Shown piece after piece: positions 2,376 through 63,413 of a stretch of 64,000 nt of DNA; within the stretch, counting starts at the first letter, position 1, and each line of letters begins with the position of its first letter. Source of the stretch: Tubiluchus corallicola. Taxonomy: Eukaryota; Animalia; Priapulida. The stretch is from the NCBI GenBank assembly GCA_030141605.1, contig JAQGDQ010000021.1, positions 186,001 through 250,000 on the forward strand, written 5' to 3'. A program made the position numbers and the translations under genes. The notes below the pieces were generated by a model that had not been told where the DNA came from, made no database searches, and saw nothing but the letters and a program-made list of their open reading frames with translations.

Positions 2376-5245
2376 TACATGGGTGTGTCTTACTTTTCGA
2401 TCGCTAGATAATTGGTACAATATTGAAACCACAATTGTTGTGATCTGTTATTGTAAATGTTTGTCCTAAATTTGCTAAAATTATTACCATCATTAAATCG
2501 TGGAGTGATCAAATGAAACGTTTTCAATGTCATTTATGTAACATACTAAAACTGTGTCTCATTTGGAACTATTGCCACCAATTTTACTTTTGTAACAGCA
2601 GTATGCCTGTTCCTCGTGATACTATAACGCACAAATACCTGAATTACAATAATTATTATCCAATGAAAAATAGTTCTAATGCTTAGTAAATTAGTGAGAT
2701 AAAAATCATTATTAATACTATTTCTACAGTAGGTGCCACTTAATAGACTCACTTTGGGATGGAAAGCTTTGATACAATTGACCGACTGAATCTATATAGT
2801 ATAGACGTTTGAGTCATCACTCTTCAGCTTAGTATGTACTACAAAAGCTGAGAACTTTAAATATTGGGTCTTTTCCCTTATACTCTATTTTTTTCAAAAT
2901 TAACTCTGCGCTCTTAGTTGCTCTGTGCTGCTTATGCTTGTAATTACTAAGAATACTCGTGCTGGATAGGTGGCACAACAGCAACAGTTAATTGATCAAA
3001 CGTTCAGTGGAAAACAGCAAGAGCTGCAAAAGGAAACCGCAATTGATTAAAAGTTTAGCTTCCATAAATTCTTGGGCAACAAGGTTATTTACAGCGGACA
3101 AGCAGGTGACAGATTCAAAGGTAAGATGCTACCCTAGCAGAACTGCACACGATTACCTGCTTACAAACAAAACAGCATCTAACATTATCGTTTATCCTAT
3201 ATTATAGTGCCCAAAAACGAAGTAAAGCTGCCATATAAGTAGTAAAAGTTCCTTGACCAGACACAAGTGTCTCATTTTAAGTGCCTGAAGCAAACATTTT
3301 GAATTAAGTATGCGGAGTTATTTAAATCAATCGCCTACTGATTTTGTATACAGTGACAGATGTTTTTGAGCCAATTAAGCGACTGATTATAATAAATGAC
3401 ATCCACAATATCAAATAAACAACTATCCAATAGAGTAGGCATACAAACTATGTAATAATTTTACTGATGATGCAGAATTTGGCATATTTTTAACGTTGGT
3501 CATTTAGCCTGGCAGTTTTTTTGTTAACACCTGTTTTATGTCAAACATGCAAATTAAAGTTCAGTGATATTGGACCATCCCTTTCTACGAGACAGACAAT
3601 TTTTTTAAATTATTTACTGTGTAGTAATACCTTTTTAAATTATAAATCATATGTTGTATATAAATTATTTTTTATCGTTTTCAAGTGACTGTGTGTAATC
3701 GTGTGGCTTTTGGCTGTAAATGATTTAATTACACTTCCATCACTTTATAATTCACAATCAGTTTACATTCTTTATTTTTTGTCCTGTTAACTATTGTTTC
3801 ATACAAGCCTTTCATTTGTAGGGCGGTGCCTTAATATTTGATAGATTTCTTTGCTTTTTAGACTCTGCTCAGGTGGCTTGAAAATGAATATACTTCGAAG
3901 TTTTCATAAATCTATATGTTGATGTTTAAATTGTTGATTAACTATGAGTACTATTTCCATTTTGTGCATATTTCATTAATTCTTGTGAAGTTTCCTGACA
4001 TAAACCTATGGTCAATTGTCTACATTTATAGTGCATTCTGTTCATTGTCTGATCTCCTGCATTATGTATTTTTACTGATTTTGCCCAGTTCTTTTTAATC
4101 AAAGTCACATTATTCTATTCTATCTTATCCTATAGATTCAATGTCGTGCTCCTCTTATAACACTCCCTCTTTGTTAAGCTTGCACTGACACAGTTCTCCA
4201 TTGCAATATCTCACTTCTTAAAGGCATAATCATTTTTCTTTGTGTTTCCTTTTATCAAACTACATTTGACTATCAAAACATAAACAGCACTGCCAATAAC
4301 AAAGTACAGGAATTCTAAAAAGCCCTCCCCAAAGATTACACTAATCCTGGAACTCAAGTGTAAGTTACAGCAATGTCTGATTATGCATGCAAAATTGGTA
4401 AGTAGATCGGTAACTACCTGTAAGTTTCTTTTTAGAATCATATAATTATTACAGTAAGATTTTGCAGTTGAGCTAAAAACCATTTCCAATAACTAACGTA
4501 GCAAACCATGGTTAATGGTTAATTTTGTTCAGGGTATTCTAACCTTAACACCTAGTCACTTGTACAGTCTCTGCTAATTCTGTTAGGGGCACTTCTGTTG
4601 TGGAGTATAAGTACTGCATGAATGCTGGAAAAGAATCATGCTTTAATGGCAGTGGCTGCCTTGTTGAAAATTACCTAAATTTATGTAATTTTATTTTTGT
4701 GTAACTAGAATGGCAGTGCTAATGGATTTCACCTACAATGTTCTCAAAAAAATTAATGCCTCTTTTAAAGTTTCAGCAATGTTAGTGGTTTTTTGCATGC
4801 CAGCCTGGTAGATGGTCTTGCCTCTGGGGTCTGAAGAAGTTCTTGCACTTCCTCTGACCTTTGGCTTTTACAGAAGGTAAGGTATTTACAGTATTATTTG
4901 TTTGGTTTGAAGGAGGACTTTCTGCATGGGTGCTATCATTAAGTGGAAACAGTATCCAGTTTTGAATCACAGCTCGAGAGTTAAAATCAACTTATGGTTA
5001 AAATATTGAAAGGACCAATATTTTTTCTTAAGCATGATTTATTGAAAAATTGTTACCTCGCAAACATACTTTTTCATTATTGCGTGCAGTGATGTATGCT
5101 TAGATGGGCAACCAGCACGTGCTTCTCAGCGAGAGAAAACAGGTGTACCAGATCAGCTTTAAGTTTCTACTGATATTAGCTGTGCAAATTTGTTAAGCAT
5201 CAGAATGAACTAAAATGGCATTGGCTAGGTCAGTGAATGTTATTA

Positions 5246-5683
5246 CCGTATTTTCCCGTGTATAAGAGACCCTTTTTTGCTCAGAATTTTCACTTTAAAA
5301 ATAGGGGGTCTCTTATACATGGGAGTAAGTCTTTTCAATAAGATGCATAAATTGTGACACTAATGATTTTAAAGAAATAAGTGCTCTACAACTGTTTTGC
5401 GTGTCGCGTTCGACTATGAAGCGGTTGTAAGCAATACAAGCATCGTGACACAGGCATTATCTCCTCGTTTTCTCTTTTCCTGTTACAGGTTTGCAGGTAC
5501 GCACTTTAATATACACCAGTACTCTTTTTCTACAACACATTAACTGGTTTTATTTTGTTTTCAGTACCGCACTGAGTTGAAAAAAGTTGTACTTTACCCT
5601 CTAAAAATGTCCGTCTGAAAAAACTTTTTTCCAGAATTTTTGCCTAAAAATTGAAGGGGTCTCTTATACACGGGAAAATACGG
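5246..5683. mobile_element. MITE, Tc1/mariner/pogo-type (TA TSD)
   Basis: Perfect 27-bp TIRs CCGTATTTTCCCGTGTATAAGAGACCC / GGGTCTCTTATACACGGGAAAATACGG flanked by TA at 5244-5245 and 5684-5685. An internal TIR-like copy lies at ~5305-5325. No ORF. Confidence 0.9.
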
Positions 5684-7398
5684 TAAATTTTGTTTGCTTA
5701 TCTGATAATTAGCTTGTAGTAGTATCCAACACTACTTGTTGGCCTAGCCATTTTACCTCATGCAAAAAATGAGTGGACATTAGTGGGAAATAAATTGTAA
5801 ACATGTTTACTTAGATGCTGATTTTAACTGCTAGTCTACAGGACAGGTCTATACGCAGATTTAAATTATTATTAGTGTATATAGTAAAGCAAATTAAATA
5901 TGTTTTAGCTGTGACTTTATTGTATAGTAAAATAATCCCGTGGAATTATAAAAGTTGTGCCATTTAATGCTTATTCACTTAACAGTCCCAAATTCAAATA
6001 CTGGGTCAAAATTTCTTCTAACTATTCCTCTTTACTTTCCGAAATTAGTAAGCTACATTGGTAATTTATTACTAATTTATCTGTTTATGTTCATATTGAC
6101 GAATATAATGGCTATACTGTTTTCTTTGCAGATAAAATTTTCATTGTCCGCAAAAAATTCTTTTATTTCTCTTTTGACTTTCACATAAGAACATAAATTT
6201 ATGAAAACTTTTTAAAGTTTTTTTTTAAATTTTTAACTCGCATTTTTTATATCATTTAGATAGCTACATATTTTACAAGGTGATTTTTGTGTCCAAAAGA
6301 CAGTTAAACTTCATTTCTGTGGCAGTGTACCACCTGCCGGCTCAATCCAGAATATTCTCGAATTGTGTCAAAATATTTGTTTAGGTTGTTTGTTGTGCAT
6401 AAGACATGTGGAGTCAAGGGCGGTTTTGTACAGGAAACCAGTATCATCTGGTTATGCATGGTTCAAGAGAAGGTCATTTATAATCCCGCAAATAATATAT
6501 CTACGAGATTAGCTCAATAAAATCATCTGTTGATCAATGTCATGCAAAGGTCAGTCCTAGAATGGGTAAATAAAACTTTAAAGCACAGTGCCGATGCTAA
6601 CAGTTTAATCTAAGTTGAATATAAACCAGTAACAAAATGTAATGCTAGAGCAACATTGAAGTACAGTTTAGATATTTAATAAAACTGTAAATTAAAGTTA
6701 TAATGTTGTGTAAATTAGTACTGAATATATCACTGAATGTATGCTTTTTAAAATGCAACTATATTAAAGTTGGCAATAAATGAAAAACTCATTATTAGGC
6801 CTACAAATAATTAAAACTACGATTTTCTGTTACTACCTGTTTCAGCAATATATATTGTGGTATAATTCAGTGGATTTCTATTCTTGCAAATTTTTTCATT
6901 ATAATAAATACAAGTTAATCAAGTTTTATTGATCTACAGAAATGTTCTTTACAAATCTGACTTTCCTGCAAATGCAAATAAAAATCGTAGAACTGGTTAG
7001 AAACCAAATTAAACAGGCTAAGTTTTCCTTGAAGTTTACTAAACTCAAAGGATTAAAAAATCAAGGTATTCTGATTATAACCCATTTGAAGATATACACT
7101 TGCATTATATAATTTAAATCTGATAATTCAAACACTATATTCATAAAATTAAAGATAAAATTATCTAATGAAATTACTTTGTCTGAAATTGATTATTATT
7201 ATTTTTTTTGGTGCCTGAGTGTTTAACATATGGCACGTATTTTTAATTTTGTGCTCACTTATCGCCTTTCTTCACTTTGTGGTAAAATACAATTACGCAG
7301 AACCTCGTTTTAAGAACGAGTTCCGACTTTCGTTATGCTGGTGCAGTGAATTATGGGAAACCACCGCATTCTTTAGAACGAGGTTCCTCGAAAATTGT

Positions 7399-10048
7399 TC
7401 AACCAAAGTTTTCCACTCTGCCGCTGCTGAAGTCTTCTGTTAGAACATTCATTCTGGATACAATGACGTCTTTGCTCAAGTACATGCCAGTTAAGTGACG
7501 GTGTACAGCCTGACCATCGTCCACGTACTGGCCACGACCATGCAGAACCCGTGTGTTGTGGAATGCGATTATGTCACCTATAAAAACATTTACTAATAAA
7601 AGCAGAGCTGAGTCATAGTAGATAGAATTGTAAATAACCGTCATAAGTAAAACCAGTTTTTGTATTGAAAACATTGCCTGCCACTGATAATTAGTTATCG
7701 TAGAAGGTGATTATTGGAGTCTTACCTGGCTGAAGTTTAATTTGAAAGAGGTGTCTTGGTTCATAGCTCAAGTCCCAGAATGTCCGCAAGGCACGGTAAA
7801 CATTGGGAATCTCTTCAACGGGTGCTTCTATAACTTGTCCTCTGATGTGATTGTTTAAGTGAATTTTCTCTACTGCTCCTTGCTCGTTCAATCTAAAAGG
7901 GACATCAGCTCATGTGTTATTTGTTTATAATTCTGGAATAACTTCATTATGAAATTCAGCATTATCCCAAAAGTACAGAATTTAAACCTTTCCCCAATTT
8001 TAGTCTTTGTTTTGCAAAGTAATAAGCACTGCTTATGCCATGAGTAGATATAAACTCTAATTGTGCTTAAAAAACCTCTCTGGCTACACTTCATTATTTT
8101 ATTTTATTTTAATCAAATCTAACAAGTCTGGTCTCCAGTACAGATTTTCTTTCGATTGCGTACTTGACTGGTTGCATTTTTAAATTTGTAAAAAAAAATT
8201 CCGTATTAAACCACTAGTCTGCTATGTGTCAAATTCACTCTGCACGAATAGTGAAAAATTTATTGAGAAATTAGAGTACTTGCTTTATGGGATAGTACAG
8301 CTTCCTAAGGTAGTATTTGTAATCACTTTCTTTTCCCTTGTCGAGGAATTGAATTCTAGTTGTGGTTAAGTACTCGTAGTCCTTGGGATACTCATGCTTC
8401 ATAACCTCAGCAATCTTGAAACCGTCTACAAAATGGTTCTCTCCGCCATTTGATGATTGGCCGATGCAGTGTAAGTACTGAAACTGAAATTTAACAGAGT
8501 CAAGGAACGGAATCTGCCTAACATAAGACTGAGTATGGGTATTATTATACTTAAGTGTTTGACTGCCATTTTTATTTCTCTTGAAGTCTGTGTATCAAGG
8601 AGTAACTTTAATGAGGCATCAGTATCTACTGAATCATTGTTTTTAAATATAGGATGTCCCAAAATTCACAGATTGCCTAGTACTGAAGAAAACAAACATA
8701 AAAACATACAAGACATAAACTTCTAATGAAGGGCAGCTGCAGTCAAACAATTACAAATACATCCTGCAGCTGCACAGGTAATTGTAACTAATTTTAACTT
8801 ACATCCGGTATGCAATAACAAGATGTCAGGTCGACATGCAGTCCCAGAAAGCTGTTAGTATATGCCATGTTATTAGGCGCTTGTTTTGTTATCACAGTAA
8901 AAAACCTGCTAAATATTGCAAGTAAAAAAGGTTTAGTGAGACTAAAGTACCTAGAGACAAAAAGAAATAGTCTAAGTTACATAACAGAACAGATTTATTA
9001 AAAGATGAAGTGTGTTACACAGTCTGCGTGATTATACTAAAGTGCTGTTAAGAATGCTGGAATTATTGAAAAATATGGAGGATAGTTAAAATAGAATAGG
9101 TGCGTTTTTTATGTTGTTATAGCCACTTGCCAGAATGATCAACGTCTTAAAAAGTACACATATATGAACAACACCCCTTCTTTCAGAAATTTACCTGTGT
9201 CTTGATCTGGTGTGAATCTGTGTTAGAAATAGTTTTTGATGCATTAAAACACTCATACTAGCTGAAAGGCTTTTGGGAGTGCCAGCACATCATATGACAA
9301 TTTACAACTTATGAGATTGCTAGCTTAAACTAAACATTCAACATGCCTTTAAAAATAAAAAAACTGATGTAACTTACCCATAGTGGGTTTCATTGACATA
9401 TCCCAGCAGCTCTGCCAATTCTGATAAAACGTTTTGCCTTAAAGGAGCATCCTTAATGAGTGCAATTCCATAACGCAGTAAAGACCCCAAGTAGTTATGT
9501 AGCACCTTGGTGTCTCCCATCACATCAGCATAATTACAACAATACAGAGAATTCCCGATTTTTTCCATGCCCCACAGTTCTTGCATGTAGTTGTCAATCA
9601 TCTGCCTTGGTTCTGCATTGAAGAAGTGTTGTTTACGTAGAAATTCCTGTTTGTAACAACTCTCACTTCCATCCTCCCATTCGATGTACAACTGGCCATC
9701 CTTCATTGATGCAGTTTTTGCAGACATGTCCAGGTTCCAGTCGGTCAGCATCAAGGTCCGTTGTCCATTGCTGGTGTTAAAAATCTTTGCACAGTTGTCC
9801 CGAAGCCATACAAGCGGATAATACATTTGCTGTCCATCCAACCACATGACTTCTACCAACTTATTTGACCTGTGGAGCGTGACTTTAACTGCTTCTGGTG
9901 GCTTAACACCCTGTATTGTCTTGCCTACGTATTTTGGCGCATTCTTCAACTGCACTTGTGGCAGTGCTTTTGCATGACTGGTGGAAATGTTCCTGTGGAC
10001 AATTCCAAGGGATCGCTGCAAAGAAATCCTCACGATGTTGCTAAACAT
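7399..10048 (-). CDS. BBOX1: Gamma-butyrobetaine dioxygenase (BBOX1)/TMLH-family 2-oxoglutarate Fe(II) dioxygenase, ~439 aa, 5 exons
   Basis: Exons 10048-9378, 8905-8803, 8483-8284, 7892-7726, 7577-7399 with consistent phases. Motifs YPLVWLRDNC, ETHYG, PNNMAYT..L.LHVD (HxD), QYLHC...GGEN.FVDGF, LQPGDIIAFHNTRVLHGR (distal His) and RHLTGMY (2OG-binding Arg). Closer to BBOX than TMLH by these motifs; exact orthology untested. Confidence 0.9.
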
Positions 10049-10181
10049 GTTTTTTACTGAAAGTAATGAAAGCTGATTAGCAATTTGATACTGTGTACAG
10101 CTACTAAAGTATTTATTGTTTTACTTCTCCTTGCTAACGCTTTTGGTATTGTGAACGTAATTAAACTTTGCGCGCTGAGCC

Positions 10182-10209
10182 TATTTATACTAGCAACGCA
10201 AGTGACGTG
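10182..10209 (-). promoter_or_regulatory. TATA box plus CRE-like site of the BBOX-like gene
   Basis: TATAAATA on the minus strand at 10189-10182, ~135 nt upstream of the ATG, in a CpG-enriched patch. GTGACGTG at 10202-10209. Confidence 0.55.
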
Positions 10210-12042
10210 CAGAACGTTCTAGGCGGGCTGGCGAAGCTCATACTTTCGTATGTAATGACTTATGAGAGTTGTTTTGGGTGGATTTGGCAATTTGCCAAAT
10301 AGCTGGCAACGGCATGCAAAACGGTTAATGTATATCTATAATTATAAATGGACATTAAGTGATAAATTGTTTTATATATTGTTCGCATTTTTTACTCTTA
10401 TTCGACGTGATTTTAAAATTAGTTATGAAACAAAACACTGAAACTAGATTACAGTAGCAGAATCACGATTTCTAGCACTTCGTAATTTTAACGACAAATA
10501 CTAGCTATGCCTTAAGACTGTTAGTAACTGGTGCAAACTGCTGAAATCTGGATGACAATGCTTAAACAGAGACACAGAGAGAGGACGGGGGATTTCTGTT
10601 TGCTCTTCTTATAAATAAACGTGTCATAAATGCAAACAGACCTAAAAGGAGAACACAACTGATTAAACTTATATCGAACTCACGTATCGTGAAAAATTAT
10701 ACCTGTGGAAAGTAGTCATAAAATTAGACGTTTAATAAAAACGGTTATTTTAGAAAATGAAAATGGGCCTGTTATAGTATAGTTAAAACAAAATGGGCCT
10801 ATTATGACTTCAGCACGAGCCCTTTTTGCGTTAACTGTGTTGATATTGTTTCAAGGCCTTTGAAGTTGTGAACAGTCAAAAATAGTAAAGTTTCAAAATG
10901 TGCTGTAGCTACTTAAACATGAATCCCCAGATGAAGTCAAATAACAAGACTAACCATATTTTTACTTTTACAACTAATATCTGAATCGACATCCAATTTA
11001 CTATCTGTAGACACACAAGCTGATGGAGAAACGTGGGGGTGGGGGGGGGAGGCGAGAGCGACAGACCAGGGAACAGACAGTTTAATTTTACTTTGATTGT
11101 AGCTTTACAAAAATAAGACATGCTTACATGCAATTTATTTTACAAACACGATGGTAGATGGCAGCAAAGGTATGGAATGCTTATAATTTATAGTTACACA
11201 TCTTGCTTGCCAGCTGCCTGCGGAATCTTAACATGGATCTGTACTATAATTTTAAGTATGTAATTGATATGTACTTAAATGATTGATATGTAATTGATAT
11301 GTACATAGCTGCAACAGCAATTGAAATGTTCAATTGTTTTTAACAACAATTGGAAGTAAGCAAAAACAATGGAATTAGGATTACACTGATTCGAGAAAAC
11401 AACCAGGTTACCTAGCCAATTTAGGCTCATTTGTTGTTTGTGTGCTAATTTGGTGTCCTAGAGTATGTTGAATGGCAATACAATGGCTTGACAGAATTTC
11501 TCAGTTTCTCAGCATTTGGTTCTGGTTGTATGGTTACCTTCCTTTACACAGTGTTATAATATGCAGGGATCACAAAACTGCTAAATTTAATCTACATAAA
11601 ATCTTTGACGAAAATGGCTGCTGTGCACTTTTTTATTATGTATAAAAACATGTAACAACATAAACGATATTGTTAAAAATTGAAATAAATGAATATTATC
11701 TGAAACTGCCATTTCAGAGATACGCTCCTTACATTAGTAATAAAAGCTTGTATACGCAGAACAGAGTTCGTAATTGATATTACATTCTCTAATGCAGAAG
11801 TAAAATGGCATATAATTTGTAGATTAATACATTTGTAAATTACAAAAGTCTGTATTTGTTGATAATTACTGTTTTAAAGAATAAGCATAAAACTTGATTG
11901 GATGAAATGATTTTGCAAGAGAGCATAACAAAATACAATTACATTTCAGGTATATTTTAGAACATTGCCAATCAAATTACGCATTTAAGTATAGCATCTT
12001 GTCACAAATTAGTAAAATTACGCAACAGTACATCTGGATTTG

Positions 12043-12700
12043 TAGGGTGAACACAAAAAATTGAACCCTTTTTAAAATGTCATAGAGCTTGGAATTTTTA
12101 TCAAATTTATATATAAATTTAGCGGGTAAACTGCTAAGAATTTAGTACTTGTACAACAATTTTTGCTAAGAAAGTTCAAAAAAATAAACAGTTTATGCCT
12201 GATATTGTAATTCAACATGTAAACTGAGAAAGTTAGGTATTAATATGATTGAGCTGTGTTTATGAATTGGATGTTACAATTTTATTTCATTCATTTTATT
12301 CATTGAGTCATTTTATCTAATTTTTTTAAATTCAAGTGATAAACCTAGGCCAGTGACATCATTTCTTTTTGGAAAGTTCCCTCATCAGTCTTTTTCTGTA
12401 ATACACTTTATTAGTCCTCAAGTATTTAATAATTATTTTGTCCTTTTCTGTAAATAGCATAGGTTTTTAAAATTTAGACATCTGAAAAATAAAGTGAATG
12501 AGTAAAGTCAATACAATTATAATAATGTCTAACCTTTTTTTCATTTTTATGTGCTTGATAACAATATGAAGCACAAAATGTTTATTATTTGGACTTTCTT
12601 AGCAAAAATTTGTATATAAGTGTTAGTTTGTCCTGTTACCTTTACATACAAATTAGATAAAAATTTTTGGCTCATTTCTCGTTTTTGTGTCCACTCAGTA
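12043..12700. mobile_element. Degenerate non-autonomous Tc1/mariner-like element with long TIRs
   Basis: Left end TAGGGTGAACACAAAAA versus right end (reverse complement) TACTGAGTGGACACAAAAA. Inverted similarity continues inward for ~200 bp (TTTTGCTAAGAAAGT / ACTTTCTTAGCAAAA). Confidence 0.65.
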
Positions 12701-13488
12701 TAATTAACGTTCTGTATAAGATGCGAAAATTTAATAATAAAAATATGGAGTAGTAAAGTAACAAGTTTGCATAGCCATAAAACAATGCTTTACGTTATTA
12801 TTTACACTAATTATAGTTTAATGTATTTGCCAGGACAACTTCCAGAGAAGTGGATTTATTGCTGTGACCGATCATTACCCGTCTGCATGACTGAGTCGGA
12901 CAGATTACCTGTGCGTTCTGAAAAACAAAATAAATTTGTTAATGTACTTTTCGTTCCAGTTACAAATGCACTTACCAGTTTTGAAGAGCAATTTAGTAAC
13001 ATGGCAAATAGGTTTTCTGCATCTAAAATAAATTTGTTCTGAAATTGTGTGAAATTATTTAAGGTTTTTGGTTGTACCTTGCTAATCTCCATATAGTGGC
13101 TGTGGTGACAAAACAATTGACTGTGAGATACCGCAGCCCTAATGTTAAATGGTCTCCAAGCACCAAGCAGATTTGTTAAAGTGTATTTGACTTTATGGCT
13201 TTTATATAATTTAGTATGCAGTTTAGCAGCATTTGGGTCACTGCAAGCCTAATAATGTTCATGGCAGAATTGAACCAAGTTTATCAAGTTTTACATGAGA
13301 CAATAAACCAGCAAAACTAGCAAACTTATCTTTTTCAATTAGAGAAATTGCCAGAGCAGTATCTGCTGACAATTTATTTGCATGGGGTCAACCATTTATT
13401 CACAAGCTTGGTCAGCGCTGCTATAATTTTGGTGCCGAGAACACACTGTGACCAGTGGCTCTTTGTAGAAAGTTACAAAAAACAGTAG

Positions 13489-52191: not shown

Positions 52192-55100
52192 ATGGCAGGA
52201 ATTGGAGGGATACTACTGCTAACTGGGTTTATCTTGGTTATCACTTATTTTGTGTTGAAGGAATTTTGGCCAAGTCGATTTAAAACATTGGTGCATAAGA
52301 TACCTGGACCTCCATGTATCCCGTTTTTTGGAAATGCGCATCTTATAAAGCGGCATCCAAGAGGCAAGTAATTTTGTATTTAAATAAAAAAGACACGTGT
52401 TGGACATTGATTACGTTACGAATTTGGGAAATAAATTTTAGTTTGGTTTTGAGCCATTATTTGCTAAATTGCAAAGTAGACATGAGAATGAGCTGTTGAG
52501 TTTTTTAGGTTTCTGGGTCCTCATTGCATTTCAGACATTAAAATCAAATGGAGATTAGAATTAGATCTTAAACTGCTCTAGGATTGGCTCTTCTTTAATT
52601 GAATGGCAGTGGCTAGAGGTACGGATCCGTACTCGTACCTATTTTTGCAACAGATACGGATCCGTGCTTTTTGTGACATTTACAAAACATACGGATTTTG
52701 ACAATTACGACATACGGCGTTTGACCATGTGCCCAGCATACATGCCCACTTCATGAAAATGGTGATATGGCATTATACAGCCTGGACCCGTACCGTTTTT
52801 CTTCGGTACCATTTTTCTTCATCATATAATAGTTACAGTGTAACTTTTGTGCACTGTGAGTGTAGAATGCTCATTTAGTAATGCAGTAAAGCACTTTGAC
52901 TCTTCAAAAATAAACTTTTAGAATTTTGCATTTTGTAAAAAATGTTCTAACTGAATAATTAAATTTTAATAATTTTGCCACTATGCAGACAATAGCTCAC
53001 TGTTGTTACAATTTCCTTAGAGTTATATGTAAAGTAACAGAACTCCAGTAAAAAAACATTTTATGATTATTAAAAGTTAAAACGGGCATGCACAGTAATT
53101 GGATATTCACATTCTTTTTAAAGATATATATCAGTAGAAATATTAACTAACGTCAAGCAAGTACCCTAGAACTCATGCAATCTATTGCATTATTAAATGT
53201 TCAAGCACTAACAATGCTAATTAGTGAGATAAAACTGTTACAATGGGAAGACACATATGCATTCAATTGGCAATATAAACATATTCATGTCAGAAAAAAT
53301 TAAAAGTTCAGCATAATATAAGAAAAAAGTTTTTTTAATCTTATCTTGTTGTTTTTCGTATGCAAACGGGGGATAAACGCTTCTTTCATACCAAAAATAG
53401 GCTGACACTATGTTTACGCTATAGTAATAAAGCATGACTCGCCCACCGTAATATGACGAAGTGTTGCGCGCATTCACCGCGTGTCCTATCTAGGGATTAC
53501 GTAGTAATATAGATGTCTATGAGGATATTCAATTTCACTCAATCCGTGGATCTGGCAATTGTGGATTTTGAGGTTGCGGATAAACGAGAAAGGGATATAT
53601 TGCCCCTCTCTGATGGCAATCCGTATTTCTCATCAATATCTTTCGCAGTACGGCGATCCGTATCTTCTCGTCAATATCTTTCGCGGTACGGCGATCCGTA
53701 TTTTCTCGTCAATATCTTTCGCGGTACGGCAATCCATATTTTCTCGTTAATATCGTTCGCCGTACGGATTGATCCGTATTTTCTAGTGAATGCTTTCGAG
53801 ACACGGATCCGTACTTTTAGTTGCTGCAGTTCCGGATACGGGTCCGTACCTTTTGTCACTGCCTAATTGAATTGGGTCACATGCACAATTTTCTCAGATC
53901 CAAATTGGCTACCTTTCTCTTGATAACCGCTATTGTAGTATTGTGTTTTAAATGTATATTTTTTGCATATATGAGTGTGTTTTGACATTGCAAATTTATA
54001 GCTTGTTAGATACTAATATGGCAGTAGGAAATAGTAAAATTAGAACTACTATTAATGTTCGTGTTTAATTTTACTGGTAGTGGTTCAGGTGAATAAAAAT
54101 AATATTTTTACTGTAGTATATTATACATAACTATAATATGTACAAGTATTTATTAGTGGCCGTATGTTGTTTGATCAAAAATAAACCTTTGGGTAAACTT
54201 TGTTATCTAAATATCACTACTGACCTATATATTATTATTTGAAGATGAAAAGATTATGATCACTTCACTCGCATCTTGGCTTATGTAATTGGACTTTGGA
54301 ATTTCGTTAGAGAAGACTAGGTTGCTGTGTACACTGTACTTCATGCATAGCGTAAAAATATATAGCCCTACTGGCTGAATCCACACACTGTGTGTTATTT
54401 TGGTCACCATTTTAGATGTCGTTATTCAGATAGAGTGCGGACATTGATGTTCGAACTGGGGGCTATCCTAAAATCTGTAGAAAGACATATTTGATGACTA
54501 TATGTAGTGGAATGTCCTAAAAAGTGCTATTTTGGCCACTATATTACGAGGAGGTAGACCCAAACTGACATTGTTCTAAAACCTACCCAGGGTCATGCTG
54601 GTTGTTATGATACACCACAGATAACTAGTTATAGTAGGACAAAATGAAATAAAACAATAGAATGTCCGAAAAAGTGCTATTTTGGATGCCACAGAGACTC
54701 ACAGAGTCAGATTTCCATCTATTGTTCAAGTAAACCCTAAAGTATTTAATTGTGGATGTGCAAAATAATTGAGTTGTGATACATCGTTGACACTTATTTG
54801 ATATTATAAGTATGACTGCAATATCATGCGTGCTTTTAAATAGATGACTTTAACCTCTAATAAGCTAAAGCCTACAGATTGTCTTACTCCTAAGACCTAA
54901 GGTCAATTTTTAGTCAGCAGAATTAGCCTCTCGTCTCATTTCTGCACTATAAAGCAACTTTGTCTTGATTGTTATTTAGGCCATTGATTCTCTTTTTTGT
55001 TCCGCACTCATTTAAATTTGTGTTATAATGTTTTCAGAGTTTTTTGATCAGGTAAACGATTGGTGTAAGAAATACTGGCCTGTTTGCAACGTAATGTTAG

Positions 55101-58100
55101 GAGATTCGCCACACGTTTGCCTTTGTGATGCTAAAAGTATTGAGGTGAGTGTGTGTCATCTGGTGAGCGTGAGAGGAAACTCCATAGTACAGATTGTGAG
55201 TGAGTGAAATCGTAGTTAATGCAAAGCTGGCAGCTTTCTATTTTTAGTTTTTTTGTTCTCCACTCCTATTTGTAATTATATTATGAAAAAACTTACATTT
55301 ACACTGATTTGAATTGTTTTTTTAGACAATGATAGTTTTAGCTGATTAGGAATTCTAAAAATTATAAAACCACTAATTGCTTTGGAGCGTGATAGTTAAT
55401 AAATTGCAATACATTTCTAGTTTCTTTATTTATTCACGCAACGTCTTAGTTAACTCACACCATTACATGAAAAGCTCAGCACTTAGTCAAAATAAGTAGG
55501 TGAAGGTGCAACTCATCGAACCAATAACTCAGATCTTTCACCATTCTCAGAAGTGACTGAAAGTAACTGGTGTCATATTCAGGGCATCTTGCAGGTATTT
55601 TATGAGTTTGTTTTGTAAGTACTGGTTAGAAATGAGTTGTTTTTATACTCATGGTAGAAGCTGTTTCCAAAAGTGGCAAACCTTTTTTAGTATTTTCCGT
55701 TGTGGCCATTTACACTGGCAATACGAGTGCTTGTAAACCTGTACACTAATTAGTAAGTGTGTGTGAGATCCTACTTTGGTTTCGATTGCGTTGTTCTATT
55801 ATTTTTGTCTGTGTTATTACCGTAATTGTTCAATAGTTTCAAACTTCAAAGTTTTAGTAACTACTTCACCAATAGTTATGGTACCTGCCTGTATTACAGA
55901 AAAATAAGAAAAGTTCTCTATCCTCGCATGGTGGATTTAGTGGTAATGCTTTTCCATAGTTGATATTCAGTTTTTAATCAGGTAATTTTGATCAGTTAAT
56001 CAGAATGCTAATGTGTGGAATGCAGGTCTTTTGTGAAAGCTGTCATGGATCTTGGTTGTTGTCGCTGGATCTTTAATGCTGAACGTGGATGATTCTGACA
56101 GTCTAGACTATACTAGTTGTATTCATGAGTAACATGTTGCCTGGATGAAATTTAGTTAATCAATTGCTCTCGGTCTTCTGTGTCAGTTTCTTGCTTAAAT
56201 AGGTTGTTGTATCTTGGCTTGTGAATGTGGCTAGAAACAATTTTAGTGGCCAGGCTTTAACAGTAAAGATGTACGTGTTTTTACATTATAATATGGAAAA
56301 TTTGCATAATTTCAGAGTTCTTTGAGCAGTTGATGGGCTGGTGTAAAGAATACAGACCTTTTATGAAAACTTACCTGGGTTTTGAAGCATGGTGCTGGGT
56401 TTTTGATGCAGAAGGTGTCGAGGTGAGACAGCATATTCCCTGCACCATTCCCAAAATTTCACATATGTTGTGACAATAACTGTTCCTGATGCTGTTTTCT
56501 AGATTATTGAGCTTTTTTAGGGGCAGGTGATGTTTTACCAATTAGGAAGCAATTGAATAGAGTACTAAAACAGCTGCTTTGAGTGTAGCTTTACTAATAA
56601 TCGTATTAAGCGTTTTGTCCAGTAGGGTCAACCGAGGAAAAAAGGGCCAACCAGGGAAAAGTATATTATCTCTGTATGATCTATTTTCTCCTGTTTATTA
56701 GCCCTCTTTCCTTGGGGTTCAATTTTTGCTGCTGTGCTTTAGCTAAATGGAGTTTCCTCTCACTTTTCAGAGTTCTTCGAGCAGATTGTGGAGTACTGTA
56801 ACACATATGGTCCGTTCTTTAAGGGGTTGATAGGCAATCAGCTTATGGTTGTTTGTATGCGAGCTGAGACTGTCGAGGTACAGAATCCGAAATTTTGGCT
56901 TAAGATATGGGCAATTAAGAAAATATCAACAATATAATAATGTAAACTGGAAACTTTGCCCTTTCAAAACTCGTTTTCTGGAGCCGTAATTTTGTCCGTT
57001 AATAAAGGTTTGGTAGTTTTGAATGCATGAAATTCCTAGTTCTTTGATTCTTTTGTTATAAAATTATGGTTTAATTTATAACTGAAACTGGCATGTTTGC
57101 GTGAAAACTAAATTACACTGTTTTTAAATTTGACAGCTTTTTAAATTACATTTTTTAATATTGTAAAAAGCTTTCAAGCTGAAAGTATTTTTTGCTCTTG
57201 GACTGGAGTATCTACACCATTTTTGTCATGGTACATTTTTCATGACATCCTGAAATTATGGTTTTATCATTCAGTTTCATAGAAATCTAGATTGAGGATG
57301 CGAAAAGCAGAGAAATGTACCACTACAGTATCGGCTTTGACCGAAATTTATTAGTTAAATATGGTGTTTTACTATCATCGTCTACTAACTATCATCTACT
57401 AATCGATTTTTTGTTTTTTGTTACATTTGAATCATTGCAAATTCTTACTAATTATATCATTTTTAATCACTAGCTTGTGAATCTTTTAATAACTGAAGTG
57501 AAGAAATATTCTGCTGTTTGTGTCTACTAATAGTGTAGAGTTTCCGCTGAATTGAATTGCTAGCAATTTTTTTCTGATTTCAGAAATGTAGAAAATGATT
57601 TCCTGTTGATCTGCTGTACATGCCTTTAAAGTTTTAGCAGTTGTGAAAAAATGATGTTTACACATATCCAAACTTTATCTTAGTTTGCGTGTCATGTAGT
57701 TTTCAACAGCTATGTAACTGTGTGGAAATATTAAACGTTGTAAATTTTTAACTTTTGTATTATGATTATGTGAAATGGTAATTTTGTGTAACAGTTCTTC
57801 AGTATATTTAATGAAACAAATATTCATTGAATTCATGTAATTAATGTAATTCATATTACGTAGGTTGGTATTGGTAAGTTGTTAGGTTGACTGATTAGTT
57901 TAATTATTGATCACTAATTACAGGCAATACTCAGCAGTTCCAAGCACATTGAAAAGTCGCGCGATTACGAACCACTTCATCCATGGCTGGGAACTGGCTT
58001 GTTGACTAGGTAAAAATTTACATCTCGTAAAAGAATGTTAAAGTCTACAGACACCAAATGGAATGTTAAAACATATTTAGTATTACCTTGATTTTTAGAA

Positions 58101-61100
58101 ATATACTTAGGGATTTCCGTGTGGAATTTCCGTTTTCAGAAATTTTCATATCATTTTACCATCTGTTATATATGTTGTAAATTTTGTAATAATTGCTGTT
58201 GTGAACAGACCAGCGTTTATGTTTATTTTGTTATTTGCAATTGACACTTTGTATGTCAATGTGTCGCATAGTTTATGTTGTTGCGTGTACGCTTTACGTG
58301 TATAATAAAAACTGACATTTTTTGCTCTAACAAGGTAGATCTACACAGAAGTTTTGTAATCACAATAATTTTGTGTTTTAGCACAGGTAAAAAGTGGCAT
58401 TCACGTCGTCGATTGTTGACGCCAACATTTCACTTCAGCATTCTCAATGACTTTATCGACGTTTTTAATGAACAAACGGAGATTTTTGTCAATAAACTCA
58501 AGGGCGCAGCTGATGGGAAAACCATTAACATCTTTCCCTACATAACCTTATGTGCACTTGACATCATATGTGGTTCGTATTCTCCCTTCCCCTTCAGACT
58601 GTCTTTAAATAAATAACTTGCATAATGTTACTGCTTAACAATTATACTGTTCTGTTCACTTTTTTATTGACCTTTTATTTTGTTTCTTTTTATTTGGTAT
58701 AAAAGCAGTTAAATTAAGTAGAGATAGTTGTATTGGTCTTAAAGAAAAAGTTCAAAGCCTCTGGTGTTTCTAATTATCTTTAGTAACAAGTTTGATTGCT
58801 AAATGCTTTTAAATCTTATTTTAAGTAACTTATTTTGGTGCGAGAAAGTCTGAACTACTGCAACTAAAATGATTTTTGCAGATGCTGCCATGGGCATAAC
58901 AATGAGTGCACAAGCAGAAAGTGAATCAGAGTATGTTAAAGCAGTTTACAGGTACTGGCATTTCTCACTCATTTAACTTTTCATTGATCATCTTCGTAAA
59001 AGCTATGTTAAATACTGAAATAAGTCTTACATTATTCTAGTGCTCTTCTTTTGGTTCTATTGGTCCTTTGCAAAAGCTGAAGTATGTCAGAGTCTTTCTT
59101 TGTCATCTGCGCTAAGCTCCAATAAGTCACCTAAAATCTTGGATATAGTTGCATTGTTTGGATTGTTTCAGGCCATATAAATATTATGCTGAACAAATAT
59201 CGACCATGTTGCATCATTTTTGCTAACTGATTTAGAATGTGTCAATCACTCAATTCTTAACCGTTTCCTGTTGCCTTCAATTATTTATTTATTGTGTGAG
59301 AATTTTGCTTGGTTTACTTAGTATGCAGCATCAATATAGCTTCAATGACAGCGTCAAAGCTAGTACTTTGTTGACAGGCTGGGCTTGCTAGTGCAAGAGA
59401 GGCAGAAACAACCGTGGTTATGGAACGATTTTATCTACTTTAACCTTCCTCCAGGCTGGGAGAGTAAGAAACTGATTAAACTGCTTCATGGTGTGACAGA
59501 AAAGGTATGTGTTAATTTTTTGCATTTCTTAAAATTCATGTAGCTGTGTGAGACAAAATGGCATAAATAAATTGTTAATATTACTGGTTAACTTCTCATC
59601 AATTTAAAGACACATGGCATTACTAATCTGTAATAATAATTAGGATTGTATGGTCTTGCACTGAACCACTTCAAAGGAAAGGCCAAGCCTTCTGAAAAGT
59701 TGCGTTTATGTAAATGTTTGTGAAAAATGTCAGAAAGATCTGGTAATAAAAGCCTTAAGTAGTAAAGTGTGATAAGCGCCTCGTGTAATTAGTACAGTCA
59801 CTTTAAAGTCACGATCATCACGTTGGATGAATTGGCTTTCAAAATGGGCATTCCCATTTTGAAAGCCAATTCATCCAGCAATGACGTCATTTGTTGATTG
59901 AAGAAAGGTAATACATTGTCAATTTCCAATAAATGCATAATCAGTTGTAAAAAATTAGATAGCTAATTTTGTGTTATATATGTATAAACGTTAGGTAGGC
60001 TGCAGAAGTTTGAATTAGTTTAAGGAAAGCCATGATTGGTTTAAGAAAAGTCACAAAGTCCACCAGTTACATCATAATTTTCAAGTGAATGTCAGGTGTC
60101 ACCGCACCTGAAAATTCCTATACAGCAGTGTATACAGTTTTTTGCAAACTTCTTTCTAAGTCTTTATATTTTTCTAAGTTTAAGTGATAACAACAAAATG
60201 TATTGTATTGTATTGTATTGTACAGTACTGTGTTTTCACTGTTTTGGTTCTTATTTTTTTTGTTTGATGTGGCTCATTTGTCTGATGTGTGGGCTGACAG
60301 TAGTTTAGAATCCCACTACTGATTTTTCGCTTCAGGTAAAGCTTTCAAAACTTACTTATCTCTAGTTTTCTGTAGATGATATTTGATTTGTTGAATGCCG
60401 AAGCAGCCTCTTAAATAATAGATGAATAGTGATTGACAATAAACTAGAAACACATTAGAACTTGTTGATGAATGTTTAGGTGATTCGTGAGCGTACTGCT
60501 ACACTAAAACAGCAGCATGACGAGCATCGTGTTAAAGAGAAACATGGAGAGGCTATACAGTATGAGTTGATTGGGAGCCGTAAACGCTTAGCTTTTCTAG
60601 ACATGTTGCTGCATGCATCCGATGGAGGAAAGACTCTGTCTTTTGATGACATTCGTGAAGAAGTTGACACATTCATGTTTGAGGTATATTCCATGACAAA
60701 AAATTGTATATCTTGCATTTTTTATCTGTGCAACGGTTAACAAGCTGTTATCATCATAATCATCATCATCACCATCGTTATTTGCACCATTCTTTTCATA
60801 GTAATTAGCTGCGTTATTTATACTGTGGAAAGCTGTGGAACTAAATTATAAGGTATTTAGATGTGGATATACTTTTGTTGGTTAGTTCTGGTTTTAAATA
60901 AGCCAAAGTCTGTAAAGAGTTGTTGCTTATGGGCCTGTTCAGATGTAGAGACTTCTTTTGCAACTTCTCTCAGGAAGTTGCAAGTCATTCACACTTTGCA
61001 ACAAGTTGCAAAAGAAGTTGCCAAACCATTCACACATCGCAACTTTACTCTCAGAGAGAAGTTGGGAGAGGAGCCTCTACATCTGAACGTGCCATTAGAT

Positions 61101-63413
61101 ACCTGCCTTTTCTCTTAAGATTTAATAAAGGATGCATCAAATATTCTCCCATAATTCTCACCATACATTTATCACTATGTGATATCATTGACAGTTGAAC
61201 TGTATCTATTACCATGGACAGTTAAAGATTTAAAGACGGCCTATATAATATGTCCAATATTCATTTTAGCCATGTTGATGGAAATTAATGATAGAAAATA
61301 TCCTATAATTCAGGTTTTTAATGCACCTTAACATTTAGGGACATGATACAACAGCAGCTGCTATGGCATGGGTGACACATCTGATAGCTTCCCATCCTGA
61401 TGTTCAGACCAAACTACAGAGGGAAATGTATGACATCTTCGGTATGCTTTGTAGTCTTGCTTTGAATGAAATCACTAGATAAATTAATTTTAGCAAATTA
61501 AAGTTTTCAAGAGATTTTTTGTCCATAAGAACAAACGTTTAATAATAATATGTGTAATGGTTAAACTGGGTTAGTTTTACATTACTGAGTTACCACTCAT
61601 AATTGTACTCTTCCGTGCTTTGTCGTTTAATACTGTGTTAATACTAGGTATGAGAATTGCTGCTAATGCATTACCAAATTAGCCTATTAAAAAGAAACAT
61701 TTCAACCTGTTTATTATAGCCTACTGAAAAGAATCATTTTTACTTGTTTATTAAACTAACGATTTGTGTAAGATTGTGTCCTTATATTGCAGCTACTTGA
61801 TTAATTTTAATTGCAAAACTAGTTGTATACAAACTGCATTTCTATCATGCAGATTATGAAGGTGTGGTCGCAACTCTGGAAACCAGACAGTTATAATAAA
61901 ATTCGTGGCACATGCTCATTTACATTCCATACATAACATACAGGACTTTTCTCATAGTTTCCATACAACTACAGTTTAATAAGTAAATTTACTGCCTCCT
62001 TGATGTAGTCAAAGATTATTTTTTGTTATCTGTGTAATCTGGTGCAAATTGTATAAAATTAGCAAGAAAAATTCCAATACAGTAGTGTTTTACTTGTGCT
62101 TTGCAGCATAAGCGTGTACATTGTAAAATATTCTAGAGATACTAGTGGTGTCAAGGCGAAACTAAATGAGCTTATTTTTGCCTGTACAAGGCATTTCATC
62201 AATTTTTAAATATGATATAGTTAGCAGCAATGTTTAAACTGCATCTACCTGAATTTTGCCTTCAGTGCTGCTTTAAAGGCTAAGTGATCTTTCTTCGTAT
62301 GTGCTTGTGAATGCTTGCCTTATATTCTCTTATAGGTGATAGTGACAGGAAACCAACGATGAATGATCTCAAAAACATGAAGTATTTGGACTGTGTTATA
62401 AAGGTATTTATCTATAAAATTTTAGCTAGCTTGTACAGTGATAATGATTATATAGGTACAGTATGGACTTGAATGAGAGAAATAGATTTTGGTAATGGAG
62501 AACACATTATTAATGATTATAAACTTACAGTCATCATCTAATCATTATAATATTGATATTTAAAGGAAAACCGGATGATTGTGTAAACACGAGTTCAGAA
62601 TAAAGAATGCTGTAAAATATTGAAAACTACAATTGCTTATTTTAAATCAAAGCTTAGATTTAATAATAATTACCTCGGATACTCAAATTTCATAAACTGT
62701 CAAAGCTACGTGCTGCTCAGTGAATCTAAGATTGGCAGCGGTGCCTTTTTGTTACGTGCGCGTGGCCGACAAATAGAAGGCGGTACCGTGATATCCATGA
62801 TCATGAACTGCTGTGTTAGTTTCATGACATCATATGATGTAAAGTCCATTTTTCGTGACATCATGCGATTAAGCAGCACTGTAACACCTATGCAAATGTG
62901 CTTGACACGCAAGGAAATACGCCTGCCATTGCACAAACTGTGATTAGTTTCTGACGTAAGCAATAGCTGTGTTCGGTTGACGTTAATTGACTTTCTAAGC
63001 TAATTATTCAAATACAAGGAACAATTGTTAACTTTTATAGGCAAGAAAATGTATATTTTGGACAGTAAATTAAAATGTGATTGAGTCTAAACCACCGATC
63101 TTCCTTTAATAATCTTGAATTTAAATTAGAACTGTGTCTATTTAAAATGGTTGTAACACGGTAATAACCGCCACATGCGGAATTGGCTTAAAGCAACATT
63201 CAGATTTTTAGTAAATTGCCAGTTTGGTAAACTAAACATAATGGCAAATGAGAACTTCTATTAGGCTTAATTAAATGCCAGTTGGAAATTTTTCTTTAAG
63301 GAGTAATTTCATCAATATATTCCTAACTAATTGCTTTTATTTATAGGAAGGTCTAAGGCTATTTCCATCAGTTCCAATGTTTGCCAGGAAAATAAATGAA
63401 GATTGTGAAATCC
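52192..63413 (+). CDS. CYP4: Cytochrome P450 family 4 (CYP4V-like), 3' end beyond the window; exon 2 triplicated
   Basis: Exons 52192-52363, [55038-55144 | 56316-56422 | 56771-56877], 57924-58009, 58382-58572, 58882-58951, 59378-59504, 60480-60683, 61339-61441, 62336-62403, 63347-63413. N-terminal TM anchor, IPGPP..PFFGNA hinge, [28 protein letters not shown] (WxxxR), [25 protein letters not shown] (CYP4 I-helix signature with Glu), [17 protein letters not shown] (ExxR). PERF and the heme Cys are not in the window. Confidence 0.95.
52605..53863. mobile_element. Non-autonomous DNA transposon with 9-bp TSD (Mutator-like) in CYP4 intron 1
   Basis: Exact TSD TAATTGAAT at 52596-52604 and 53864-53872. 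Imperfect TIRs GGCAGTGGCTAGAGGTACGGATCCGTAC / (reverse complement) GGCAGTGACAAAAGGTACGGACCCGTAT. Recurrent ACGGATCCGT palindromes. Confidence 0.8.
53615..53814. repeat. Minisatellite, ~5 copies of a 38-bp unit inside the transposon
   Basis: Unit GGCGATCCGTATTTTCTCGTCAATATCTTTCGCGGTAC, head-to-tail with no spacers. Confidence 0.9.
55038..55144 (+). CDS. CYP4: CYP4 alternative exon 2a
   Basis: TTTTCAG|...GAG|GTGAGT, 107 nt, (E)[35 protein letters not shown]. Confidence 0.9.
56316..56422 (+). CDS. CYP4: CYP4 alternative exon 2b
   Basis: ATTTCAG|...GAG|GTGAGA, 107 nt, (E)[35 protein letters not shown]. Confidence 0.9.
56771..56877 (+). CDS. CYP4: CYP4 alternative exon 2c
   Basis: TTTTCAG|...GAG|GTACAG, 107 nt, (E)[35 protein letters not shown]. 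Confidence 0.9.
59824..59877. other. Perfect 25-bp inverted repeat with 4-nt loop in CYP4 intron 6
   Basis: TGGATGAATTGGCTTTCAAAATGGG-CATT-CCCATTTTGAAAGCCAATTCATCCA. Confidence 0.9.
62564..63105. mobile_element. Kolobok-like MITE (TTAA TSD) in CYP4 intron 9
   Basis: TTAA at 62560-62563 and 63106-63109. TIRs AGGAAAACCGG / (reverse complement) AGGAAGATCGG. CpG-containing core. Confidence 0.6.

Follow-up and report, generated by a model that had tools for sequence, protein, structure and literature searches.

A candidate two-way RNA switch in the exon 2 cluster of a CYP4V-like gene of the priapulid Tubiluchus corallicola

The window analyzed here, a stretch of 64,000 nucleotides from Tubiluchus corallicola, carries on its plus strand a cytochrome P450 gene that continues past the window end (Table 1). 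The top matches to exon 4 are named CYP4V2-like, at 60 to 70% identity, and the best identities for the P450 protein are 49 to 56% over 365 to 406 residues; judged from these sequences, the gene is a CYP4V-like cytochrome P450. Its intron positions are presumably common to this gene and vertebrate CYP4V2. A protein tree of 32 rows (36 proteins had been chosen, and 5 that had no anchor motif were left out) places it beside the annelid Owenia, with support of only 89/62. Exon 1 joined to one exon 2, exon 3, and seven further exons gives an unbroken frame of 398 residues to the window end, and a contig about 92% alike to exon 1 is found in run X5. Elsewhere in the window, minus-strand open frames at 7400-10120 resemble exons of a mitochondrial dioxygenase, which we take to be of the butyrobetaine-hydroxylase type, and a protein search with an unrelated open reading frame of the window gave no match at E 1e-10.

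Table 1. Positions of the gene, its alternative exons, and the predicted pairing elements within the window
Feature	Position	Strand	Remarks
CYP4V-like gene, exon 1	52192..52363	+	ATG at 52192; no other boundary keeps the frame open into each exon 2
High-copy element in intron 1	52605..53863	.	36-nt terminal inverted arms; not part of the switch
2a acceptor region, predicted first partner of element X	55004..55036	+	Branch candidate A55010, pyrimidine tract; ATE1 R1 analogue
Exon 2a	55038..55144	+	107 nt, phase 1 to 0; exon-2 profile match 22.9 bits
Element X, predicted switch	55160..55207	+	Contains the 17-nt arm 55169-55185; ATE1 R3 analogue
Element Y, candidate mask of exon 2b (donor and 3' half)	55437..55555 (core 55437-55508)	+	Chosen after the fact
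Decayed fourth exon-2 copy	55987..56087	+	Closest to 2b
Exon 2b	56316..56422	+	107 nt
2c acceptor region, strongest predicted partner of element X	56725..56771	+	Arm 56747-56763, A56746, AG; ATE1 R4 analogue
Exon 2c	56771..56877	+	107 nt
Exon 3, constant	57924..58009	+	
Later constant exons	58382-58572, 58882-58951, 59378-59504, 60480-60683	+	
Later constant exons, continued	61339-61441, 62336-62403, 63347-63413	+	Gene continues past window end

Exons 2a, 2b, and 2c are equal in length, have their own AG/GT ends, and are 29 to 40% identical in protein sequence. A fourth copy has decayed: it aligns with a score of 62, versus 21 to 39 in 11 other exon-intron comparisons, and translations from its three candidate acceptors all stop, leaving no open frame. 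It carries a 4-nt insertion relative to exon 2b. The reading frames permit inclusion of only a single exon 2 copy, as the product that skips exon 2, all three double-inclusion products, and the triple product run into stops at residues 67 to 113. This frameshift, coupled to mRNA decay, could already explain exclusivity without any RNA pairing. Because the decay mechanism applies here, pairing may set the ratios of isoforms rather than create their exclusivity. Mechanisms of mutually exclusive splicing have been catalogued (PMC6071210, in its available part); here, steric hindrance is ruled out by spacer introns of 1171 and 348 nt, and U12 incompatibility by the GT-AG ends. Intron 1 opens with a GC donor (AG/GC, 52363-52369), which is needed because splicing from the nearby GT would shift the reading frame of all exon 2 copies, and this weak donor, common to all exon-2 choices, may buy time for the choice of exon.

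The introns also hold repeated sequence. The element in intron 1 reaches a summed contig depth of 5000 to 12900 in run X1, versus about 160 for unique DNA, and it carries internal 38-nt tandem repeats. Later introns of the gene contain a perfect 25-bp hairpin with a 4-nt loop (59824-59877) and a second set of inverted repeats (60932-61093), both probably small mobile elements.

Swapping of the segment that matches exon 2 occurs in annotated CYP4V2-like proteins of other animals. An isoform pair differing only in the exon-2 columns was present in all 19 isoform sets compared, which comprise 12 bivalve sets from 11 species, 1 from Owenia, 4 from amphioxus (two species and two hybrids), and 2 from sea urchins (two species); the sets were chosen for having several members and are database gene models, seen as proteins only. 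As predicted for our gene, the paired isoforms of these animals are identical outside the exon-2 segment, and each annotated isoform carries one exon-2 version, with as many as five variants among the annotated isoforms of Branchiostoma lanceolatum. These pairs, together with the reading frames, support the view of an earlier first-pass annotation of this DNA that the exon 2 copies are used in a mutually exclusive way. Protein clusters of Gigantopelta, Patella, Diadema, and Styela gave no pair differing in exon 2 only. The four teleost CYP4V X1/X2 isoform pairs compared (P0119/P0131, P0122/P0124, P0123/P0134, and P0125/P0150) all differ in exon 1 instead, within the first 63 residues; judged from the proteins, teleosts have in alternative exon 1 another means of varying the N-terminus of this gene's product. 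In a tree of exon-2 variants built on 37 columns, several variants cluster by lineage, at poor resolution. This grouping, which holds for most variants, suggests repeated duplication, insofar as so poorly resolved a tree can be read. A protein-profile scan kept 79 loci, none of which (0/79) had at least two full exon-2-like copies, while the window itself gave three.

In a protein model from a scallop, the exon-2 segment corresponds to residues 57 to 92 and takes in most of a helix (55-68), two strands (74-79 and 82-87), and the first part of a second helix (90-97). We assume that these elements, helix A, beta-1, and helix B in P450 terms, lie close to the substrate entrance. The swapped segment supplies a helix and two strands at this probable point of entry, and the isoforms may therefore differ in substrate. 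Our literature search, with subscription papers and supplements outside its scope, found no report of mutually exclusive exons combined with RNA pairing in a P450 or CYP4V gene. Nor did it find a paper on exon-2 swapping in CYP4V, although the subscription literature could describe invertebrate CYP4V splicing.

The first-pass annotation had drawn attention to a 17-nt match between the region after exon 2a and the acceptor of exon 2c. The two 17-mers, 55169-55185 (arm 1) and 56747-56763 (arm 2), are indeed exact reverse complements; arm 1 begins 24 nt past the end of exon 2a (55144), and arm 2 ends 7 nt before the start of exon 2c (56771). A longer duplex, between 55160-55200 and 56725-56771, has this match as its core and includes the acceptor CAG (-41.6 kcal/mol). 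At -41.6 to -43.4 kcal/mol, the pairing of element X with the 2c acceptor is reached by 0/500 shuffles, and element X windows take ranks 1 to 3 of 10642 as partners of this acceptor over both strands of the window. It is also the strongest of 760 helices of at least 10 bp in 53870-57923, by 11 kcal/mol. In the fold of 54960-56960, the 17-mer core pairs with a probability of about 1.0 and the acceptor CAG with about 0.9, so that folding supports the earlier prediction of a stem that masks the 2c acceptor and loops out exon 2b.

Two details of that prediction held in part. The proposed extension of the stem, AGTACAG with CTGTGCT, is present in the sequence but has a pair probability of only about 0.20 in the 2-kb fold; the better extension lies on the other side of the 17-mer, over the acceptor CAG itself. 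As for a branch point in the bulge, A56746 (position -25) is the sole candidate resembling the yUnAy branch-point consensus 10 to 45 nt upstream of exon 2c, but its last base is imperfect. Contigs of run X1, which is possibly the source sample, span the two arms and differ from the window at 4 and 1 positions; all five listed differences fall outside both arms and outside element X. Metagenome contigs scanned for the exact pattern of arm 2 with the acceptor gave 0 matches, and the two Rfam matches in 53800-58400 were both far below the gathering score.

The sequence around arm 1 has some further features. Five GTGAG donor-like words occur in the 60 nt after exon 2a (55145-55205; at 55145, 55163, 55169, 55196, and 55200), and U1 binding at these words could compete with both of the helices considered here. 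Element X resembles two loosely repeated units, and a local hairpin covering the 2a donor is predicted at 55110-55155.

The competitors proposed earlier for this pairing lay on the side of exon 2b, and neither stood up. The element TGAAAT..TAATGCAAA pairs with the 2b acceptor at -6.1 kcal/mol, equalled by 183/500 shuffles and with about 0 expected pairs, and pairing of the 2b donor with arm 2, at -16.1, is marginal (22/500 shuffles) and likewise has about 0 expected pairs in the fold. The stronger competitor, which the annotation missed, is the acceptor of exon 2a itself. Bases 55174-55207 of element X pair with 55004-55036 at -26.6 kcal/mol (rank 3 of 10641 windows), a value matched by 2/500 shuffles of element X and 3/500 of the target, and the duplex covers the best branch candidate of exon 2a. 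The duplex scan that gave these ranks took in 9 of 13 planned sites. Pairing of element X with the 2b acceptor, the decayed copy, and eight of eight constitutive acceptors is at chance in the shuffle comparison. The 3' half of element X, which is G/U-rich, forms equally good duplexes with two unrelated intron stretches (-28.0 and -26.7). Bases 55174-55192 are used in both pairings, with the 2a and the 2c acceptor set against element X in different registers and showing only a loose, gapped likeness to each other.

How far the 2a pairing persists depends on the length of the fold. Its core has a probability of 0.74 to 0.96 in 12/12 folds that end at 55215 or 55250, of 0.09 to 0.87 in folds that end at 55300, and of 0.00 to 0.01 in 6/6 folds that end at 55400. 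The loss arises because a local hairpin partner near 55255-55298 takes over, and the 2a pairing would thus need kinetic trapping to persist. The stretch 55000-55212 folds with a z of -3.1. In the 2-kb fold, the two mutually excluding states reach -508.2 and -505.9 kcal/mol. Forcing the 2a pairing costs the difference of 2.3 kcal/mol, which lies within method error, and removes all pairs between element X and the 2c acceptor.

Exon 2b has a candidate partner of its own. Element Y forms a duplex of -54.7 kcal/mol with the 3' half and donor of exon 2b, ranking 2 of 6375 windows; the one window ahead of it is antisense to the decayed exon. This duplex nests within the loop closed by element X and the 2c acceptor and is kept in all five constrained folds (43 to 52 pairs). 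The probability of such a match by chance is about 0.1, a rough figure that allows for the cluster's share of the window and for six exon ends. Element Y may mask exon 2b, as modeled here. Part of it is overlapped by 55485-55585, which has an 88% match in one low-depth contig of the related run X5, with unaligned flanks; the match is a hint of sequence constraint and extends over only that part of element Y. The 55485-55585 segment is single-copy and intronic, is bracketed on the minus strand by AG and GTGAGT-like words, and has no Rfam match. A self-contained structure in 55480-55590 was ruled out (z -0.75), as was the idea that element Y switches the 2a or the 2c donor (62/150 and 82/150 shuffles). 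When element Y was considered as a decayed inverted copy of exon 2b, 12/2128 windows scored as high, several of them the exons themselves.

The closest parallel to this arrangement is human ATE1. [quoted passage not shown] Splice-site masking by competing helices is therefore an already known mechanism, and the occlusion that the first-pass annotation offered as a new variant of Dscam docking had been demonstrated by mutagenesis in ATE1. Our locus resembles ATE1, to the extent that this text describes it, in having an intronic element between duplicated exons that is complementary to two acceptor regions through overlapping pairings. Element X lies at 55160-55207, between 2a and 2b/2c; its complementarity is above chance for two alternative acceptors (0/500 for 2c; 2/500 and 3/500 for 2a); and its pairings compete for common bases, such that forcing one removes the other. 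The differences are also clear. There are three live exons and a decayed one here, with the switch joining the first and the third; a separate candidate mask lies over the donor of the middle exon, and frameshift decay acts as a backstop. R1 and R4, as far as they are described, are unlike the partners in our gene, which differ in their pairing registers and resemble each other only loosely. The ATE1 switch has been shown experimentally, whereas that of the CYP4V-like gene is predicted from sequence and folding. On these models, the pairing is real and well placed, and its layout is that of ATE1 and not of Dscam docking.

We consider it probable that the pairing affects splicing. Our preferred account, which we advance tentatively, is that element X is a two-way, ATE1-like RNA switch that would cover the acceptor of either 2a or 2c and so bias which copy is spliced in. 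In the nascent RNA, element X would first pair back over the 2a acceptor and hide exon 2a. After a further 1.5 kb of transcription has produced the 2c acceptor, element X could use its unpaired 5' end to seed an exchange to the stronger 2c helix, which would hide the 2c pyrimidine tract and AG and free exon 2a. Element Y would keep exon 2b down in both states, with 2b being used when a protein or kinetics opens element Y, and nonsense-mediated decay would clear any leak of double inclusion. Among the points that count against the switch is that a single one cannot silence both 2a and 2c, so that the choice of 2b is not accounted for. A more ambitious version, in which a three-way choice is made purely by masking, with an ATE1-like toggle between 2a and 2c and an antisense mask on 2b, in a CYP4V exon repeatedly duplicated across bilaterians, seems to us rather improbable.

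It is also possible, though unlikely, that element X is the strand of a single silencer helix, pairing with the 2c acceptor only and lowering the use of 2c and of the looped-out 2b, with the match to 2a incidental and exclusivity left to decay. The 2c helix does dominate the equilibrium fold of the whole cluster, whose minimum-energy structure contains no pairs between element X and the 2a acceptor, and the disappearance of the 2a pairing from longer folds points the same way. An incidental match would not be expected, however, to outdo nearly all shuffles (2/500 and 3/500 match it) when nine of nine other intact acceptors fail to do so, or to fall on the best branch candidate of exon 2a.

Somewhat more doubtful is the view that the pairing has no function, the 17-nt match having arisen by chance, the choice of exon being made by splicing factors and splice-site strength, and exclusivity being imposed by nonsense-mediated decay. 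The stop carried by every skip and double product fits this view, as does the fact that a genome scan covers many genes. Moreover, the window contains four other perfect inverted pairs of at least 17 nt, 100 to 3000 nt apart (two of them share one arm), and such pairs are thus no rarity in this genome. The present pair stands out by lying on splice signals. Only 2/2000 dinucleotide shuffles of 54960-57923 produced an inverted repeat of at least 17 nt without mismatch, as did 3/500 shuffles of 53870-63413, the gene without the repeat element of intron 1. Both arms lie on or beside the splice signals of paralogous exons, and the helix runs past the 17-mer over the AG; these observations argue against chance.

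Very improbable, in our judgment, is a transposon origin, in which a 1.6-kb mobile element brought in or picked up exon-2 copies and the arms are what remains of its terminal inverted repeats, with any splicing effect a by-product or a later co-option: the genome does have elements with inverted ends, one of them in intron 1, but there is no target-site duplication of 2 to 12 nt, the DNA between the arms is near single-copy (depth 162 to 203 in X1 contigs), the window has no other copy of an arm within 3 mismatches, and arm 2 serves an intact exon as its pyrimidine tract.

We give equally little credence to classical docking and selector approximation, in which the helix would bring exon 2a near a downstream site and activate it. 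The locus does share with Dscam1, 14-3-3 zeta, Mhc, MRP1, and srp, as the available parts of the sources describe them, a long-range intronic pairing that loops out exons in a tandem cluster (PMC6071210, PMC4691838). Like many selectors, arm 1 closely follows an alternative exon, at 24 nt, and looping and approximation are documented for srp in the available text (PMC4691838). But the helix here would repress by covering splice signals and not activate by approximation, and arm 2 occupies the acceptor ahead of the last alternative exon instead of a site in a flanking constitutive intron. The scans around exon 3 and around the exon 1 donor gave no outstanding local partner, with top ranks of 49 and 17 among about 10640 windows, the distant parts of the flanking introns being covered only by the helix list for 53870-57923 and later duplex scans. 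Selectors beside each exon were likewise not found: none follows 2b or 2c, the pairing of element X with the 2b acceptor is at chance, and that of the 2b donor with arm 2 is marginal (22/500).

An exchange of exons that changes a P450 is not without precedent. In human CYP4F3, as with exon 2 here, the exchanged segment presumably lies close to the N-terminus. According to the available text of two reports, its either/or exons yield catalytically distinct isoforms (PMC3022543, PMC9658179), a likeness to our gene within the CYP4 family. CYP4F3 belongs to another subfamily, however, and its control is ascribed in that text to promoters and SLU7, with RNA pairing unmentioned there. CYP4F3A/B thus provides a precedent for a change of substrate through an exon swap, and the exon-2 swapping seen in bivalves, amphioxus, sea urchins, and an annelid points to a route of diversification in a fatty-acid-type P450 that has been overlooked. 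The sequenced genomes of these animals allow the conservation of such pairings to be checked, and the whole cluster, at less than 3 kb, fits one minigene.

Acceptor-masking switches are known experimentally from very few genes. An independent invertebrate case with three exons would test the model, set out in the available part of PMC6071210, in which competing RNA structures tend to arise through the duplication of exons. If three-way masking in CYP4V is true, it would be a natural series showing such structures arising anew after exon duplication, in a gene whose duplications would swap the helix and strands at the substrate entrance.
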